IMG/VR virus record: IMGVR_UViG_2529292921_000023
Strand: one strand, 5' to 3'
Source: a virus
Taxonomy: Duplodnaviria; Heunggongvirae; Uroviricota; Caudoviricetes
Length of the DNA stretch: 18,296 nt
Shown: positions 10,268 through 18,296 of the stretch, one piece after another
Layout: every line of letters begins with the position of its first letter
Numbering within the stretch: the stretch's first letter is position 1
Notes under the pieces: generated by a model
Databases searched by the model: none
Told to the model about the DNA's origin: nothing
Seen by the model: the letters and a program-made list of their open reading frames with translations, nothing else
Position numbers and translations under genes: made by a program

Positions 10268-10561
10268 TCAGGAGCGCGATTGCGTTCCTGCCAGGGGCGG
10301 CTGAGTTGTATACCCCTGTAAAGCTCTGCCCTGATTTCTCACAAACAAGCGGAGCCTTGTGTTTGCTTCGTGCCTTGCTCTGTTCTCCTTGCGGAATGAA
10401 ACAGGCTCAGCGTCAAAAGTGATTTCGTATACCTCCGCATATTTCAGGGCGACCTTCCGTCTCAGTGACGGAGGCAGCCCCTGTAACTGCTGCTGAATCC
10501 ACTCTTCGTCTGCCTGGCAGTGCCTAGATGGCATCTCTGTCTGAACGTAATTCTGGGACAT
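10268..10561 (-). CDS. Hypothetical early protein in the cII position
   Basis: 97-aa ORF 12 nt downstream of the cro-like gene on the same strand. Low-complexity C-terminus. No family recognised. Confidence 0.5.
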   Translation of the reverse strand: MSQNYVQTEMPSRHCQADEEWIQQQLQGLPPSLRRKVALKYAEVYEITFDAEPVSFRKENRARHEANTRLRLFVRNQGRALQGYTTQPPLAGTQSRS

Positions 10562-10573
10562 ACAAGCCCTTCA

Positions 10574-10846
10574 TCATTCGTTTTTCATAACTGCCGCATT
10601 TGTGGCTGTGTGACTTCTACGTAACAAATCAGGGATTGCATCTTCAGGATGGGGATAAAGATCTGGTCTTAACCCATGAGGAGTAACTTTCCATTCCACA
10701 ACTTCACATACACGCAAGACGAAACGAGCAGGAATTGTTCTTTTTGAAAACCATTGGTTCACAGCTTGCGGCGTAACGCCTAGATTTCGCGCTATGGCAT
10801 TTTGTGCAATTAGCTCACGAAGTGCGTCGTAATCATTTCCTTTCAT
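10574..10846 (-). CDS. Cro/YdaS-like HTH regulator
   Basis: 90 aa with HTH LGVTPQAVNQW and motif WKVTPHGLRPDLYP recalled as typical of YdaS-like Cro proteins. Divergent from the CI-like repressor. Confidence 0.7.
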   Translation of the reverse strand: MKGNDYDALRELIAQNAIARNLGVTPQAVNQWFSKRTIPARFVLRVCEVVEWKVTPHGLRPDLYPHPEDAIPDLLRRSHTATNAAVMKNE

Positions 10847-10980
10847 CGCAACCCACCAATCTAAACTTTATAAATTCAAGATTACATCAAGTTTAAATTA
10901 ACATGCAAGTCCACAAAAGATCGAATACACTAAAATCAAGTAAAAATTTATCGAAACCAAGTAACCAGCAAGGATTAACA
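10847..10980. promoter_or_regulatory. Immunity-region divergent promoter/operator (OR-like)
   Basis: AT-rich 134-bp spacer between divergent cro-like and cI-like genes. Repeated ATCAAGT-type motifs at 10887-10893, 10935-10941 and the variant ACCAAGT at 10956-10962. Confidence 0.5.
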
Positions 10981-11670
10981 ATGAAAAACTTAAAGAGCAC
11001 TGAAAATCGAATTACAAAGCTGCTACAGGAGAAAGGCTGGAGCCAAGCAGAGCTGGCCCGAAAATTAGGTGTCAGCGCACAGTCCGTACAGTACTGGACA
11101 ACAGGAAAAACATTTCCAAGGGGAAACCGGCTTGCCCAGTTATCCGAAATAAGTGGTTATCCGCAATCGTGGTTTTTAGGAGAAATCACGTCACGGCAGT
11201 TCTCTTCAAAGGAAAAACATCAAGCAAGAACTGACAGTGTGGTCTTTAACGTGCTCGATGTTGAGTTTAGTTGCGGCGATGGAACACATGTCCGTGGGGA
11301 CTTTATCGATGTAGTTCGCTCAATCGAGCTTGATCCTGAATATGCCCGTCGCCTTGTTGGCAATAGAGCATTTCAAAACATAGAGATTGGTAACGCAAGA
11401 GGAGATAGTATGGCTCCAACAATAGCCCCAGGAGATCTTCTTTTTCTCGATAAAACAGTGAATTACTTTGATGGTGATGGCATTTATGCTTTTTGCTTTG
11501 ATGGTGAATGCTACGTCAAAAGATTACAAAAGATAGGAAGTAAAATCATGGTGTTATCTGATAACCCAAATTACCAATCCTGGAGCATTGAAAAAGATGC
11601 TCTTGAGCTGCTTTATATCCAATCGAAGGTAATCTCATCTGTTCCATTCAATATAAATAGATTTGGTTAA
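10981..11670 (+). CDS. cI: CI-like repressor (N-terminal HTH-XRE, C-terminal LexA/S24 autopeptidase)
   Basis: HTH (WSQAELARKLGVSAQSVQYW) and S24 Ser/Lys region (GDSMAPTIAPGDLLFLD ... CYVKRL). Start placed at ATG 10981 (AAGGA 6 nt upstream) rather than track start 10903, which has no RBS. Confidence 0.85.
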   Translation: MKNLKSTENRITKLLQEKGWSQAELARKLGVSAQSVQYWTTGKTFPRGNRLAQLSEISGYPQSWFLGEITSRQFSSKEKHQARTDSVVFNVLDVEFSCGDGTHVRGDFIDVVRSIELDPEYARRLVGNRAFQNIEIGNARGDSMAPTIAPGDLLFLDKTVNYFDGDGIYAFCFDGECYVKRLQKIGSKIMVLSDNPNYQSWSIEKDALELLYIQSKVISSVPFNINRFG

Positions 11671-11732
11671 TTATTGATTATTAAAGAAAAATTTACAAAT
11701 CAAGTAAAAGAGACGCAGAAATCAATTTTTTC

Positions 11733-11811
11733 TTGACAACTCCATCAATCAAGATCTAACATCACACCATCAATTTTGACTTGATTTATTGTTAATTTTA
11801 AATTGATGGTG
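11733..11811 (+). promoter_or_regulatory. pL/OL-like promoter-operator region for the early-left operon
   Basis: TTGACA (11733-11738), 18 nt, TAACAT (11757-11762). Perfect 11-bp inverted repeat CACCATCAATT (11765-11775) / AATTGATGGTG (11801-11811) flanks a second candidate promoter TTGACT-17-TAAATT. ATCAAG-type motifs recur. Confidence 0.45.
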
Positions 11812-11816
11812 ATTCA

Positions 11817-12245
11817 ATGAAAGATCTGACAACCGCTGAGATATCGAACTTAAACCACTTCGAAAAAGAATCCTTTGCATTAAATATTGCAAATCTGGTA
11901 GGTGCTGCTCGTACTTTCCATTTAATTGATGGTGATCGCTCTAAAGAATTGGGGTTTGAAGTCATGGAGTTTGTTCATGAATACGCCCTGTCTGCTACTT
12001 ATCCATTACATAATCACATAATCAACAAACAACCAAATAAAATCCGCACCCAACGCGAAGCCTGCGGCTTAACAACCGCCGAACTCGCCAGGCTGCTCGA
12101 TCTCGATGAAGAAATTATCATCCAGTGGGAAAGCGGAGAGTACGAACCAACCATCAGCATGCTTATCCCTCTGGCTAATGTTCTTGGCTGTGATCCAATG
12201 TTGTTATTGACTGATGCTTATAAACAAAATCAGGAGGAAGCATAA
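11817..12245 (+). CDS. Hypothetical protein with C-terminal HTH-XRE domain; first gene of the pL-like operon
   Basis: 142 aa. C-terminal HTH (LTTAELARLLDLDEEIIIQWESGEYEPTISMLIPLANVLG). N-terminal ~80 aa unassigned. Confidence 0.6.
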   Translation: MKDLTTAEISNLNHFEKESFALNIANLVGAARTFHLIDGDRSKELGFEVMEFVHEYALSATYPLHNHIINKQPNKIRTQREACGLTTAELARLLDLDEEIIIQWESGEYEPTISMLIPLANVLGCDPMLLLTDAYKQNQEEA

Positions 12246-12246
12246 G

Positions 12247-12438
12247 ATGAAAATGTTCAAAGGCCTTACCAACGAACCGGAGACAGCTTTTCATCACATT
12301 GCCGTACTGCTTGAAGCGGGGTTAATCATTTCGGCTTCCGGTGATGAAGAATGTGATGAACTTTCGGATGATATCTTTTTACTGGCACAACAATACGCCA
12401 AAAGCGCATGCGATGCATTTAAGGAGCAAAGAACATGA
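12247..12438 (+). CDS. Small acidic hypothetical protein (63 aa)
   Basis: AGGAGG 8 nt upstream of ATG 12247. Track start 12214 overlaps the previous gene and is less likely. Stop overlaps the next start (ATGA). Confidence 0.5.
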   Translation: MKMFKGLTNEPETAFHHIAVLLEAGLIISASGDEECDELSDDIFLLAQQYAKSACDAFKEQRT

Positions 12439-12626
12439 TAACTCCATTAAATATTCTTGAGGAAGTGGCGGCACAAATAAAAGAGAATACATCAATGCTT
12501 GAATTTATATTTAAGAATTCGCCCGACCAAGGAGAGACAGACGATTATTTATGCTGTCTCATTCGCTCCATGAATAAGACCTGTGAAATGGCTTACGAGT
12601 ATATAGAAACACTACGCAACGAATAA
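12435..12626 (+). CDS. Small hypothetical protein (63 aa)
   Basis: AAGGAG upstream; ATGA overlap with the previous gene. Confidence 0.5.
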   Translation: MITPLNILEEVAAQIKENTSMLEFIFKNSPDQGETDDYLCCLIRSMNKTCEMAYEYIETLRNE

Positions 12627-12708
12627 AGAACACTCAGTAAAAAATCACACATAAAAACATGACGGCCTCTGGTCGTGGATTTCCACAACCAGAAAATAAT
12701 GGTGATGC

Positions 12709-12807
12709 ATGAAAAATAGAAACGCTTATAAAACCGCATTATTAATGGCTAATGCAGGATACTGGTCAGTTGCAATACTGTTTCTCAGAAAAGCATACGG
12801 GAAATAA
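12709..12807 (+). CDS. Possible 32-aa hydrophobic peptide
   Basis: Below the ORF-track size cutoff. MKNRNAYKTALLMANAGYWSVAILFLRKAYGK; weak RBS. Confidence 0.2.
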   Translation: MKNRNAYKTALLMANAGYWSVAILFLRKAYGK

Positions 12808-12810
12808 CAA

Positions 12811-13170
12811 ATGGCATGTACAACCATTTATAAAGATCGTCGCCGCATGGTAACAGCGGCACTCCGGCGGATGCAACGTAAAACAGGTAGTAATCTGCTC
12901 GTCGTTGACCTCCCGGACGGAGAAATAACAACGATAGAAATAACTGAACAGTTCATGAACCAGTTGTTATTACGATTTGAGGGTCTTACCCGTGTTGAAT
13001 ATGGACGGACGGAAGGAGAAGCAACAATCCGTACCGCATACCAGAATGCCATCGGTATTAATCAACACACGGAATATCTCACTGAATCAGGGAAACTGAT
13101 AGTGGACGGCCTTTTAAAAGAGGTTGTTGACTACGTAAAAGAGAAATATATCAGTGGAGGAATTAACTGA
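12811..13170 (+). CDS. Hypothetical protein (119 aa)
   Basis: ORF in the operon frame series; stop overlaps the next start (ATGA). Confidence 0.5.
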   Translation: MACTTIYKDRRRMVTAALRRMQRKTGSNLLVVDLPDGEITTIEITEQFMNQLLLRFEGLTRVEYGRTEGEATIRTAYQNAIGINQHTEYLTESGKLIVDGLLKEVVDYVKEKYISGGIN

Positions 13171-13379
13171 TGTCTGATTTATCCCCTCTTATACACGAAA
13201 AAGTACAGATCATTATGACGATTGAAAATGGTCAGGTAATAAATACCCGTAAAGTTCACAATAACGAGATGATTGCCAGCATGGATACCTTCTTATGGAT
13301 AGCAAAGAAAGCGGGATATCAGGTAATCGCTCCTGATCTGGAGGAAATCGGTGACATTAACAGCAATACGAATTCCTGA
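13170..13379 (+). CDS. Hypothetical protein (69 aa)
   Basis: GGAGG about 9 nt upstream; ATGA coupling to the previous gene. Confidence 0.55.
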   Translation: MSDLSPLIHEKVQIIMTIENGQVINTRKVHNNEMIASMDTFLWIAKKAGYQVIAPDLEEIGDINSNTNS

Positions 13380-13572
13380 GTGGGTGCACCTGCAGGCGGT
13401 CCGTGTTCTCCGCCAGTTCAGAGCCAGACGAATTCATCCCTGTCGTATGCACGGCTCCGGAAACCTGAGTCTGAGGGTTAATCGCCGCTGGCGGCTGCTG
13501 TCCCGAGACGGCGGCCAGAACTGGGAAGTAATGAGCCATGAACGATACAGCAAAGTTAAGGACCGGAAATGA
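13351..13572 (+). CDS. Arg-rich small protein (73 aa), GTG start, overlapping the upstream gene end
   Basis: GGAGG 6 nt upstream of GTG 13351. Basic, Arg-rich (SLRVNRRWRLLSRDGG). A competing antisense ORF is low-complexity. Confidence 0.4.
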   Translation: MTLTAIRIPEWVHLQAVRVLRQFRARRIHPCRMHGSGNLSLRVNRRWRLLSRDGGQNWEVMSHERYSKVKDRK

Positions 13573-13605
13573 ACAATAAACCTTCAAACCAAAAGGAGAG
13601 TATTG

Positions 13606-14184
13606 ATGATTAATTCAACCATTACCCCTGAACCTACATTAACAGGCATCCGTTTTGGTAATCGAATTATTGGTTATTCAACTGCGGTTCGCCAGATCGA
13701 CAACGGTAACTATGACAAACGAATTCCGGACGGGCTCGATCTGATAGCTTGCATTATGGAAGGGATTGAAAGCGGCTGGTTTATGCCGTGTATTGAAAAA
13801 CAAATCATCCTATGGCGCTGGCTTGTTGTCGCCGTGTTCATTGCTGAGGAGCAGGAGAAGAACGGGACTGTCGATGTTCAGAATGACAAGGGCGGCGTAG
13901 ATACAGCCGTTGTATACACAGGAAAACCCGGTTCAATCAGCATTTATCCATGGTCTGAGCGCTTCGCGCTCGCTAACCATATCGAGGCGGGCGCAATTGA
14001 AAAATACGGGCCTGACGTTGGCCAGCAGATGGCGCTGCGTATGTATCAGGACATGGTTGTAACTGACGAGAAATGCGGATTCAGGCTGTCAGCGATGGGC
14101 CGGGAGGGACTCAACATACTACATGACAGCTTCATTGAACTGATTCAGAAAGACGGTATGCCAGACATGCCGGTTATGCACTGA
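13606..14184 (+). CDS. Hypothetical protein (192 aa)
   Basis: AGGAG 7 nt upstream of ATG 13606. No motif recognised. Confidence 0.6.
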   Translation: MINSTITPEPTLTGIRFGNRIIGYSTAVRQIDNGNYDKRIPDGLDLIACIMEGIESGWFMPCIEKQIILWRWLVVAVFIAEEQEKNGTVDVQNDKGGVDTAVVYTGKPGSISIYPWSERFALANHIEAGAIEKYGPDVGQQMALRMYQDMVVTDEKCGFRLSAMGREGLNILHDSFIELIQKDGMPDMPVMH

Positions 14185-14195
14185 GGTGGACGAAA

Positions 14196-14942
14196 ATGAA
14201 CATAGTAACGATCAATAACAAACAGCTTCCGGCAGTCGAATATCGCGGTCAGCGTGTTGTGACGCTGGCGATGATTGATGAAGTCCACCAGCGACCGGAA
14301 GGAACAGCGCGTGCAGCATTCAACCGAAACCGTGAGCATTTCATCAGCGGTGTGGATTATGCCGAATTAGGTGCGGACGTAATACGTACGGACCTCCCGG
14401 AAGGAACATTCTCTAAATTTGCACCATCAGGGATTGTACTTTTTGAATCAGGTTACCTGATGTTGACGAAGCCATTCAATGACGCCCTTGCCTGGCAGGT
14501 TCAGCGCGAACTGGTTAACAGCTACTTCCGCACTCGCACACCGCTAACGGAAATCGAGATGATCGCTGCGATAGCCGCCGACGCTGTTCGTCAACAGAAG
14601 CGCCTGAATCATGTGGAAGAACAGCTCGAAACAGTCACAGAAGCGGTGGAAACCATCAAACGCGGAAATATGCGCGCCGGATATGTCGGTTATCGCCAGG
14701 TGGTCGCCAAAAGCGGAATGACTGATGCTAAGTGCCGCAATCTGGTCAATGCCTACAGCATCCCAACCGATACGCACGAATTTATGACACCAGATGGTCT
14801 TCTTTCGCGCCGGGCTATCGTGGAGCTGGAGCCATTCATGAAAGCATTTCATCAGATGATGTCAGAGGCAGAGCCACGTGGTACCCGCTGGTATCACCCG
14901 AAGATGGGGCTGTTTCAGGTGATTGGTTGGGAGGGTAAATAA
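14196..14942 (+). CDS. Phage antirepressor-like protein (ORF6N-type N-terminal domain)
   Basis: N-terminal QLPAVEYRGQRVVTLAMIDEVHQRPEGTARAAFNRNREHFISGVDY resembles the ORF6N antirepressor N-terminal domain (from memory). Confidence 0.5.
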   Translation: MNIVTINNKQLPAVEYRGQRVVTLAMIDEVHQRPEGTARAAFNRNREHFISGVDYAELGADVIRTDLPEGTFSKFAPSGIVLFESGYLMLTKPFNDALAWQVQRELVNSYFRTRTPLTEIEMIAAIAADAVRQQKRLNHVEEQLETVTEAVETIKRGNMRAGYVGYRQVVAKSGMTDAKCRNLVNAYSIPTDTHEFMTPDGLLSRRAIVELEPFMKAFHQMMSEAEPRGTRWYHPKMGLFQVIGWEGK

Positions 14943-16568: not shown

Positions 16569-16715
16569 ATGAATAAAGCATTTGAACGATGGGTCCACCA
16601 GCGTTACGGCAATCGCTATGACCTGACACGAGATGTTGACGGTTTCTACTGTCGTGAAATTGTGAAACGAATGTTTGAAGTGTGGTGCCACTGCCGTGGG
16701 CTGAGTGTTGTGTGA
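16569..16715 (+). CDS. Small Cys-containing hypothetical protein (48 aa)
   Basis: Below the ORF-track size cutoff. AGGAAG 7 nt upstream. MNKAFERWVHQRYGNRYDLTRDVDGFYCREIVKRMFEVWCHCRGLSVV. Confidence 0.4.
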   Translation: MNKAFERWVHQRYGNRYDLTRDVDGFYCREIVKRMFEVWCHCRGLSVV

Positions 16716-16722
16716 GGTTGGC

Positions 16723-16977
16723 ATGCAGACAATCATCTATCAGATAACCCCCAGCAAATGGTGTACGGAGAGAGTCCTCATTGCATCAACAGGGCTAAAG
16801 CCTGGCACCATTGAGCGGGCAAGAAGAAAGTCATGGATGCAGGGAAAAGAATACCGCCATTACGCTGTAGAAGGTGATCCGGGGCACTACAGTGAATGCC
16901 TGTACAACATCGAAGAAATTATGCGATGGATCGAAAACCAGAAACAACCAGGTGCCAAAAATGCAAGTTCCGGTTAA
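16723..16977 (+). CDS. xis: Excisionase-like protein
   Basis: Immediately upstream of int. Pattern like lambda Xis (W, Arg cluster, GKEY versus GREY). GAGG 7 nt upstream of ATG 16723. Confidence 0.55.
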   Translation: MQTIIYQITPSKWCTERVLIASTGLKPGTIERARRKSWMQGKEYRHYAVEGDPGHYSECLYNIEEIMRWIENQKQPGAKNASSG

Positions 16978-17010: not shown

Positions 17011-18296
17011 ATGAGTAACGCATCATACCCGACAGGCGTTGAAAACCATGGAGGATCACTCCGTATATGGTTTCACTATAATGGCAAACGTGTCAGAGAA
17101 AACCTCGGTGTTCCTGACACAGCCAAAAACCGGAAGATCGCTGGTGAACTTCGCACTTCCGTTTGTTTTGCAATCAGAATGGGGAGTTTCGACTACGCCG
17201 CGCAGTTCCCTAATTCCCCTAACCTGAAACACTTTGGTCTGGGAAAAAGAGAGATAACCGTTAAGGCACTTTCGGAAAAATGGTTGGACCTTAAGAAAAT
17301 TGAGATTTGTGCGAATGCACTTAACCGTTACCAGTCAGTAATTAAAAACATGTTACCAATGTTAGGTGAAAAAAACTGGTTTCATCCATAACAAAAGAGG
17401 ATTTACTTTTCGTAAGGAGAGATTTGTTGACCGGTTACCAAAAGCTTTCTAATGGAAAGACTTCTTCCATAAAAGGGCGCTCAGTGGTCACGGTAAACTA
17501 CTATATGACAACCATAGCTGGAATGTTTCAATTTGCAACAGATAATGGTTATACCTCAGGAAACCCATTTAACGGTCTGGCTCCCTTAAAAAAGTCCAAG
17601 GTAAAACCAGATCCTCTCACCCGTGACGAATTTATTCGTTTTATTGAGGCTTGCCGTCATCAACAAACAAAAAACCTGTGGATTCTCGCTGTATACACGG
17701 GTATTCGTCACGGGGAGTTGGTATCGCTGGCATGGGAAGATATAGACCTTAAAGCAAGGACTATAACCATCCGTAGAAATTATACAAAACTTGGCGAATT
17801 CACTCCACCAAAAACCGATGCAGGCACCGGAAGGACAATTCATCTGGTTCAACCAGCTATTGATGCTCTTAAAAGCCAGGCGGAAATGACCATGCTTGGA
17901 AAGCAACATTCTGTAGAGGTGAAGCAGAGGGAATATGGGAGAACTGCTGTGCATAAATGCACTTTTGTTTTTAGTCCTCAGGTAACAAAACAGCAGCAGT
18001 TGTCCGGACCTCACTACAAGGTTGACTCCATCAGGGAGTCATGGACAAGTATCTTAAAACGCGCAGGTCTGAGACACAGAAAATCGTACCAATCCAGGCA
18101 TACTTATGCATGCTGGTCACTTGCCGCAGGAGCTAATCCTAGTTTTATCGCAAGCCAGATGGGCCACACAAACGCACAAATGGTATTCAATGTTTACGGA
18201 GCATGGATGAAAGACAACAATCACGAACAGATAGAACTCCTTAACAAAAGACTATCTGAAAGTGTCCCATGTATGCCCCATAAGAAAGTTGGGTAA
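17011..18296 (+). pseudogene. int: Lambda-family tyrosine integrase, split by a frameshift in an A7 run
   Basis: N-terminal arm/core-binding part is ORF 17011..17391. Catalytic domain is ORF 17424..18296 in another frame, with Arg in TGIRHGEL, a His/Arg pair in HRKSYQSRHTYA, and Tyr in VYGAW. The second frame is open back to TGA 17367-17369, and both frames cross the A7 run 17369-17375, so one extra A would fuse them (...GEKKLVSSITKEDLL...). Confidence 0.8.

Follow-up and report, generated by a model that had tools for sequence, protein, structure and literature searches.

A solitary ParE-like toxin-domain gene in an Stx2f-phage-like Escherichia coli prophage, with a predicted shortened RelE-type fold and a possible role after derepression

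The RelE-superfamily toxins YafQ, YoeB, RelK and GraT have cognate antitoxins (DinJ, YefM, RelJ and GraA), and prophages also carry toxic early genes that are kept under the control of a repressor, as with lambda kil under CI and Rac kilR and ydaS-ydaT under RacR. HigB of Proteus vulgaris (plasmid Rts1; Pfam PF05015) is a ribosome-dependent mRNA endonuclease of 92 amino acids (aa) whose gene is followed by that of its helix-turn-helix (HTH) antitoxin, HigA; R73 of HigB touches the phosphate at which the mRNA is cut, and cleavage depends critically on H54, D90, Y91 and H92 (PMC5027501). Here we analyze a 73-aa coding sequence (CDS; 13351-13572 on the plus strand, from GTG at 13351-13353 to TGA at 13570-13572) in an 18,296-nucleotide viral sequence, IMG/VR record IMGVR_UViG_2529292921_000023 (Caudoviricetes), which as a whole stretch we call the window. 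The open reading frame (ORF) is a genuine gene that belongs to Pfam PF24732, to PHROG 1525 and to the NCBI family 'ParE family toxin-like protein', its product is predicted to adopt a RelE-type fold, and it is very probably solitary, with no antitoxin gene at its side.

Membership in this family is hardly in doubt. For the PF24732 profile ('ParE-like toxin domain'), the product's score of 70.8 bits lies above the cutoff of 24.4 (E = 9.9e-20), with residues 11-68 aligned to profile positions 2-67 of 67, and it matched PHROG 1525, to which no function is assigned, over its full length (E = 3e-27). All 75 diverse relatives matched PF24732 as well, and we found nothing that sets the window protein, a full-length member, apart from the family. 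Identical and 99%-identical proteins in RefSeq already carry the name 'ParE family toxin-like protein', and other annotators have independently labelled relatives 'HigB-like protein' or 'mRNA interferase'. A word-indexed search recovered 67 clusters at 64-99% identity, nearly all of 72-73 aa and several bearing the same NCBI name, and an exhaustive profile search of 1.84 billion representatives recovered 112 clusters at E <= 1e-3, almost all of them stand-alone proteins of 60-90 aa. Relatives are encoded in at least 547 viral contigs and in the genomes of at least 47 bacterial species.

The gene is thus already catalogued in Pfam, PHROGs and RefSeq and is no discovery. Literature and PDB sequence searches returned no characterized member of PF24732 and no solved structure, and within the literature searched we found no paper that cites the accession. 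A 2025 survey of RelE and ParE proteins in mBio uses 'ParE-like' for PF15781, a family distinct from PF24732, so the latter is not covered there. NCBIfam and PADLOC scans of the 73-aa protein and its neighbors gave nothing relevant. What appears to be absent from the literature searched is an experimental test of any member, together with the apparently strict lack of antitoxins in the family, be it in temperate phages, in phages that seem to be virulent or in integrative-type elements.

Two sets of relatives stand out from the usual form or host range. Three proteins of 198-226 aa (P0132, P0151 and P0162 (L137 3001-3597)) carry the ParE_like domain C-terminal to a longer N-terminal region that has no Pfam match, and may be a multidomain variant of the family; one of them lies on a 115-kb element, adjoining genes for dihydrofolate reductase (DHFR) and a small multidrug resistance (SMR) protein. 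An enterobacterial-type 73-aa gene (73-96% aa identity) was also seen under three non-enterobacterial host labels, in Aeromonas phage AsXd-1, Elizabethkingia phage EKP1 and a contig of Chryseobacterium sp. 18061. The genes neighboring it in AsXd-1 are likewise of enterobacterial type, and wrong host labels, contaminated assemblies or an unusually promiscuous phage group may explain these records.

An ORF of 73 codons is by itself no proof of a gene: ORFs of 50 aa or more number 103 in the window, and one of them, an antisense ORF of 76 aa (13357-13587, minus strand), spans the same bases. Among 73 distinct homologous DNAs with appreciable synonymous divergence, the median ratio of nonsynonymous to synonymous substitution rates (dN/dS) in the plus-strand frame was 0.053, and the start position was kept among relatives, mostly as ATG and behind several differing Shine-Dalgarno contexts. 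Conservation of this kind goes beyond chance, and the 73-aa ORF is therefore a real protein-coding gene under very strong purifying selection. The antisense frame, with dN/dS of ~2 and open in 37 of 78 distinct homologous sequences, was ruled out on these two counts and judged spurious.

The local signals had been described correctly in an earlier note on this DNA, which was made from the sequence alone. A GGAGG Shine-Dalgarno motif (13340-13344, plus strand) lies inside the upstream gene, separated from the GTG by a 6-nt spacer, AAATCG. The 73-aa ORF overlaps that gene by 29 nt (13351-13379), since the upstream ORF (13170-13379) stops at a TGA at 13377-13379. The placement of GGAGG inside the upstream gene suggests that translation of the two genes is coupled. 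The product, VTLTAIRIPEWVHLQAVRVLRQFRARRIHPCRMHGSGNLSLRVNRRWRLLSRDGGQNWEVMSHERYSKVKDRK, is as basic and Arg-rich as had been reported, with 14 Arg and 3 Lys against 5 acidic residues and an isoelectric point (pI) of 11.88.

We modeled the protein with AlphaFold2 from 39 relatives, obtaining a predicted local distance difference test score (pLDDT) of 88.8 and a predicted template modeling score (pTM) of 0.75. The model consists of a strand (residues 2-5), a helix (10-24), three strands (39-42, 47-51 and 57-62) and a C-terminal helix (63-71). In the BECR fold (Barnase-EndoU-ColicinE5/D-RelE), an N-terminal strand and one or more helices are set on a three- to four-stranded antiparallel sheet that leads into a C-terminal catalytic segment. 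Our model has the order strand, helix, three strands and helix, with one of the two N-terminal helices absent and with weak PDB matches, and suggests a shortened RelE/ParE-superfamily fold in which a single N-terminal helix takes the place of two, the sheet has three strands and the C-terminal helix is short.

A Foldseek search of the PDB with this model placed RelE-superfamily toxins at the head of the list. YafQ (9lew_B) came first with E = 0.098, a probability of 0.94 and a query TM-score (TMq) of 0.58; YoeB, GraT and RelK stood beside it at the top, with HP0894, P. vulgaris HigB and ribosome-bound Cami1 lower down. Nearly all top matches were toxins of this superfamily, at E of 0.1-1 and TMq of 0.42-0.58. 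The best of them, to YafQ, YoeB, RelK and GraT (9lew_B, 2a6r_C, 6n90, 6f8s and 3oei; TMq 0.42-0.58, probability up to 0.94), have the strand order and the C-terminal catalytic region in common with the 73-aa model, whereas E of 0.1-0.3 and sequence identities of 8-26% set them apart from it. Structure prediction, which the earlier note had proposed as a check, therefore retrieved the expected superfamily first, and did so weakly (E ~0.1, TM 0.5-0.58). Against predicted viral structures, the strong matches were to family members only, two of them named, from jumbo phage RaK2 and Yersinia phage fHe-Yen9-04.

We then compared the family profile by hhalign with the P. vulgaris HigB sequence, checked against PDB 4MCT, and with a HigB profile built from 35 sequences. 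Family residues 6-51 aligned with HigB residues 20-76 at a probability of 19-21% and E of ~1e-3 (1.2e-3 against the HigB profile), a match that takes in the motif (I/L)HP...G..S..V...WR as well as the helix that follows '(I/V)P'. In this register IHPCRMHGSGNLSLRVNRRWRLL stands opposite HigB LHPLKGDREGYWSITVRANWRITF, which is the very stretch the earlier note had singled out as faintly RelE/HigB-like, and IPEWVHLQAVRVLRQF stands opposite HigB VPAQDVDRINDRLQAI. That reading was essentially right, in that its register agrees with hhalign and the structural matches belong to the RelE superfamily. Its narrower tie to HigB fared less well: the link is weak (19%), and in the Pfam search the window protein matched PF24732 and neither PF05015 (HigB-like toxin), which only one of the 75 relatives reached (E = 0.031), nor PF05016 (ParE).

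Conservation among the 75 diverse relatives is concentrated in a few residues, with A16, R48 (74 of 75), Y66 (70 of 75) and H63 (68 of 75) near-invariant and E64 kept in 54 of 75. The hhalign alignment pairs R48 with HigB R73, and an ungapped extension of its register past column 51 would put Y66 on HigB Y91 and E64 on E89. Measured against the full catalytic set of HigB (His54, Asp90, Tyr91 and His92, plus Arg73), only the equivalents of Arg73 and Tyr91 are kept, and the family thus appears to retain an Arg/His/Glu/Tyr set typical of RelE-type RNases rather than that of HigB. The two proteins also differ in size and setting: the 73-aa protein lacks the first segment and the second helix of the 92-aa HigB, and where HigB is followed by the gene for an HTH antitoxin, the 73-aa gene is followed by a PHROG 1515 gene whose product has no HTH.

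A second HigB, that of E. coli K-12 (YgjN; sequence verified as 5IFG), which we take to belong to Pfam PF09907, resembles the family at its C-terminus, where EVMTHKEYD parallels WEVMSHERYS, and the name given to a relative in the annotation of a Klebsiella phage was taken from it. Alignment by hhalign covered the last 22 columns, and so the C-terminus alone, at a probability of 8.8%, and the chain was absent from the 50 structural matches listed. Taken together, the comparison weakly favors the RNase branch, and it would be wrong to understand 'ParE-like' as meaning 'gyrase poison'.

To characterize the genomic setting of the gene, we surveyed 132 close loci and added 89 diverse viral loci from two scans of viral contigs, each with a subgroup of the family; including other look-ups, 238 loci with a family ORF were covered in all. 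Directly upstream in the close loci we found PHROG 340 (76 loci) and PHROG 1737 (37), and downstream PHROG 1886 (44), PHROG 1001 (25), PHROG 1515 (17), PHROG 36586 (11), excisionase and others. Across the 238 loci, the immediate neighbors formed 109 clusters, whose representatives had Pfam matches to an Rv2179c-like exoribonuclease, Dam, Dcm, excisionase, ORF6N, Bro-N, pRha and ParB. None of the 109 clusters belonged to the ParD, RelB, Phd/YefM, HigA or MqsA families, and Cro/C1-type HTH proteins were represented by a single cluster, in 2 loci. The conserved adjacent cognate antitoxin that marks a type II toxin-antitoxin (TA) system was therefore not seen, and the earlier remark that no obvious antitoxin is adjacent holds over this much wider sample. 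The window likewise gave no Rfam match that might indicate an RNA antitoxin, and the stretch 12000-14500 contains one tandem repeat only, of 17 nt in 2.1 copies (12008-12024), which lies 1.3 kb upstream of the 73-aa gene; the adjoining repeats or antisense RNA of type I and type III (ToxIN-like) systems are thus not found here.

More distant members occupy a variety of settings. On Logan contigs of up to 46 kb, the gene for a 69-aa member immediately precedes that of a T7-type single-subunit RNA polymerase, and so falls within the early part of a podophage-like genome, a place where plasmid or prophage addiction would make no sense as a role. Another follows pRha and ANT genes and adjoins an integrase, and a third has a T7 gp0.4-like gene on one side and a Bro-N gene on the other. 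In a Serratia phage the gene, named 'HigB-like' by the authors, comes after a ParB-like gene; in Xenorhabdus genomes it adjoins DUF2857, and from the neighboring genes we infer an integrative-element context. Members are also present in the jumbo phages RaK2 and fHe-Yen9-04.

One further partner was considered and rejected. A 142-aa HTH_3 protein (11817-12245, plus strand), encoded by the first gene after the CI-like repressor of the window and giving weak MqsA-antitoxin (E = 0.047) and RmrA/CapH-type HTH matches, might have served as a HigA-like antitoxin acting in trans; a comparable 148-aa HTH_3 gene, assumed to be homologous, likewise comes after the repressor gene in a syntenic Klebsiella operon that has no 73-aa gene. 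The protein is probably a phage regulator.

Judged from its boundaries, the 73-aa gene appears to be a solitary, mobile, single-gene cassette that starts inside the end of whichever gene precedes it. In the window it separates a PHROG 340 gene from a PHROG 1515 gene, which adjoin one another in related phages, and three further observations point the same way. In a different frame, the 5' end of the 73-aa gene supplies the final ~9 codons and the stop of the gene upstream (..DINSNTNS before the stop), and the same kind of ending, ..(S)DTNS before the stop, is found in the PHROG 340 genes of CharmingMan and LMessi and in the PHROG 1737 gene of AsXd-1. AsXd-1 and the window have only the 222-bp ORF in common, at 93% DNA identity. 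Finally, GC content at third codon positions (GC3) is 58% in the 73-aa ORF against 40-44% in the upstream genes.

The wider context is that of a phi467-like (Stx2f-phage-like) E. coli prophage. Over the 1.4 kb tested (12800-14200), the window and E. coli phage phi467 share 99.9% identity, and the literature searched mentions phi467 solely in work that deals with Shiga-toxin phages and Stx2f strains. The 601-bp stretch 13100-13700 is 100% identical to chromosomes of E. coli strains that produce Shiga toxin (STEC) and occurs in 30 of 5426 complete E. coli genomes. The tested stretch measures 1401 nt in the window against 1400 nt in phi467, a 1-nt difference, and phi467 is annotated with two CDS (46 and 143 aa, at 6807-7384) where the window has a single 192-aa gene of PHROG 1515 (13606-14184, plus strand; function not assigned), the gene directly downstream of the 73-aa gene; the indel would thus fall inside the PHROG 1515 gene.

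The layout of the window is lambda-like. A minus-strand operon opens with a cro-like gene (10574-10846; Pfam 'YdaS_toxin' at E = 6e-13, and P22_Cro) and continues with helicase, primase, antiterminator Q and lysis genes. On the plus strand, a CI-like repressor gene (HTH_3 and Peptidase_S24 domains; 10981-11670), whose product would act as the transcriptional silencer in the lysogen, is followed by an operon in which small accessory genes precede an ORF6N anti-repressor-type gene, the excisionase gene (16705-16977) and the integrase gene. A candidate sigma-70-like promoter, TTGACA-18-TAACAT (11733-11762, plus strand), matches the consensus downstream of the CI-like gene and is the likely starting point of the operon to which the 73-aa gene belongs; no terminator-like site was found on the plus strand in 10400-14400. 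ATCAA-N7-TTGAT motifs lie on both sides of the repressor gene (10886-10950 and 11697-11810), in the divergent cro/cI region and around the promoter candidate; they overlap the promoter-like sites and are candidate OR/OL operators. Because this operon layout mirrors lambda pL, the 73-aa gene would be silent in the lysogen and expressed on induction or infection. In this respect it resembles lambda kil and Rac kilR and ydaS-ydaT, being small, solitary and potentially growth-inhibiting and lying in the presumed repressor-controlled operon on the xis/int side of the immunity region; the lambda and Rac proteins are nevertheless unrelated to the 73-aa protein, and its control by the repressor is read from layout alone.

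From these elements we propose that the gene is a solitary, repressor-controlled cassette whose product acts on the ribosome or on mRNA after derepression, a composite reading that we consider not far short of probable. In the lysogen, the gene would be kept silent within the repressor-controlled operon; on derepression it would be translated, coupled to the upstream gene. The likeliest mechanism of those considered would have the protein then bind the ribosome or mRNA, as HigB, RelE, YoeB and YafQ do, and cut or block translating mRNA, with the strand-3 Arg R48 and the C-terminal cluster H63/E64/Y66 as the putative catalytic residues. The outcome would be an aid to host shut-off or take-over in a cell committed to lysis. 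The CI-like repressor would in this way stand in for a protein antitoxin, and no protein antidote would be needed, because the cell is already committed to lysis. The RNase and host shut-off mechanism as such is a tentative part of this proposal, possible rather than probable.

Several observations weigh against this proposal. Toxicity, RNase activity and ribosome binding are, for any family member, properties that we infer, and the structural and profile links to RelE and HigB fall short of significance: the Foldseek search of the PDB gave no match at E <= 1e-3 (best E ~0.1), the hhalign probability stayed at 19-21%, and PDB sequence searches, by phmmer with the single protein and by hmmsearch with the family profile, gave chance matches only, such as one to the BNR-like 'DGGQ.W' motif of Ycf48. 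An active site of the HigB kind is incomplete, because the equivalent of H54, present in the window protein as H29, is kept in only 16 of 74 relatives, and HigB D90 and H92 have no equivalents in the 75-relative alignment. The promoter and operator calls are consensus matches only. Finally, location in an early operon is not universal, since in Sortsne and KMB41 the family gene lies two genes ahead of holin and lysin, and no integrase is annotated in the Sortsne record.

A broader version of the same idea, which we regard as doubtful, would make PF24732 as a whole a widespread group of 'mini-HigB' proteins without antitoxins, either nucleases of the ribosome or mRNA or blockers of the A site, that are free-standing in virulent and temperate phages alike and serve to shut off host translation or to counter defenses by abortive infection. 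The prophage 'antitoxin' would then consist of silencing by the CI-like repressor only, and repressor and toxin could together form an addiction pair that penalizes loss of the immunity region.

The alternative that survives best, though we consider it unlikely, is that the protein is a non-toxic RelE-fold regulator or anti-defense factor that might, for instance, occupy the ribosomal A site, or bind a host toxin, antitoxin or RNA, without cleaving. Such a decoy would explain why no antitoxin is needed, and it suits a family that is always solitary (beside T7-type RNA polymerase, in jumbo phages and in Sortsne included), whose HigB catalytic set is incomplete throughout, whose fold is shortened by one helix, and whose neighbors are frequently of anti-repressor type (ORF6N, Bro-N, pRha, ANT). 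What it explains poorly is the strong conservation of R48, H63, E64 and Y66, whose counterparts in relatives serve in catalysis or phosphate binding, and which the fold alone would hardly demand; nor did we find a precedent for it in the literature searched.

A classical type II TA system, in which the 69-aa product of the upstream gene (PHROG 340; 13170-13379, plus strand) would be the antitoxin and the pair would stabilize the prophage or abort superinfection, is distinctly improbable. The earlier note had passed over this gene, which is a formal antitoxin candidate: the two genes overlap in an antitoxin-then-toxin-like order, the upstream product is acidic (pI 4.8, against 11.9 for its would-be partner) with a disordered C-terminal tail, and PHROG 340 stands upstream in 76 of the 132 close loci. 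The comparative data argue against it. Klebsiella and Salmonella prophages have upstream-gene homologues (60-76% identical) in syntenic operons without the ParE-like gene, and further PHROG 340 homologues occur in 24 phage records outside the organism tally of the 73-aa gene, among them Stx1a, Stx2a and Stx2d phages, phiP27, ASU11 and PhiR49_2. Those of the Stx1a, Stx2a and Stx2d phages, phiP27 and two other coliphages are 47-53% identical, and inspection of two records, those of an Stx2a phage and phiP27, showed a PHROG 1515 homologue directly after the PHROG 340 homologue. Conversely, 37 close loci, that of AsXd-1 among them, have the 73-aa gene without a PHROG 340 gene, and so do all distant contexts. 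In AsXd-1-type phages it is the PHROG 1737 gene that lies directly upstream, a gene that in the window (119 aa; 12811-13170, plus strand) is found two genes upstream. The upstream protein is modeled as a beta-hairpin, a helix and a disordered tail (pLDDT 78.5, pTM 0.40), with no DNA-binding or known antitoxin fold, no meaningful PDB match and no Pfam antitoxin match, and the difference in its tail between forms with and without the 73-aa gene is a by-product of reading into the cassette.

Poisoning of DNA gyrase in the manner of ParE, as the Pfam and NCBI names imply, is less likely still. Besides the family name 'ParE-like toxin domain', it can draw on one relative with a marginal PF05016 match (E = 0.042) and on a top structural match entitled 'YoeB/ParE toxin from Agrobacterium tumefaciens' (6n90). 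The remaining top structural matches are ribosome-dependent RNases, however, and no plain ParE is among the 50 listed; the conserved Arg/His/Glu/Tyr pattern is of RNase type. ParE requires its C-terminal part for gyrase poisoning, and the 73-aa protein is ~20-30 residues shorter than ParE toxins. The window protein gave no PF05016 match at E <= 10, and no ParD-like gene is adjacent. The last alternative, that the ORF is a chance frame or masks a true gene on the opposite strand, might be suggested by its absence from the phi467 annotation and from some RefSeq genomes and by the antisense ORF of comparable size, and is already refuted by dN/dS of 0.053 against ~2 in the antisense frame, by HMM E-values of 1e-19 to 1e-27 and by hundreds of conserved copies that keep start and length.

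The most immediate consequence concerns annotation. The 73-aa ORF is unannotated in the GenBank record of phi467, and in STEC chromosomes the Prokaryotic Genome Annotation Pipeline (PGAP) sometimes names it and sometimes skips it; the gene should be called in that record and in the RefSeq genomes that omit it. The family also offers a clean case of a toxin-fold gene that is never found beside an antitoxin, whether in temperate phages, on a T7-type RNA polymerase contig, in jumbo phages or in integrative elements. Should its members be active nucleases, phages would be using RelE/HigB-type enzymes offensively, with antidotes that are transcriptional rather than proteins, and at roughly 70 aa these would be about the smallest functional RelE folds; should they be inactive, the family would be a candidate toxin-fold decoy. 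In either case it is a cheap and reasonably interesting experimental target rather than a surprise.

Elsewhere in the window, three features drew attention. An IstB-like IS21 helper ATPase (504-1286, plus strand; Pfam E = 8e-112) lies downstream of an ORF at 16-507, and an IS21-family element therefore adjoins the lysis genes (Rz at 2547-3026 and lysozyme at 3011-3508, both on the minus strand). In Stx phages, the interval between Q and the lysis genes is the site of the Stx genes; here, a moron-like 310-aa ORF without a Pfam match (4176-5108, plus strand) sits between antiterminator Q (5223-6053, minus strand) and the lysis genes, in a low-GC stretch (4000-5100; 37% against ~50%). The integrase is apparently split, with an Arm-DNA-binding ORF at 17011-17391 and a catalytic-domain ORF at 17424-18296 in different frames, and could be a frameshifted pseudogene in a defective prophage.

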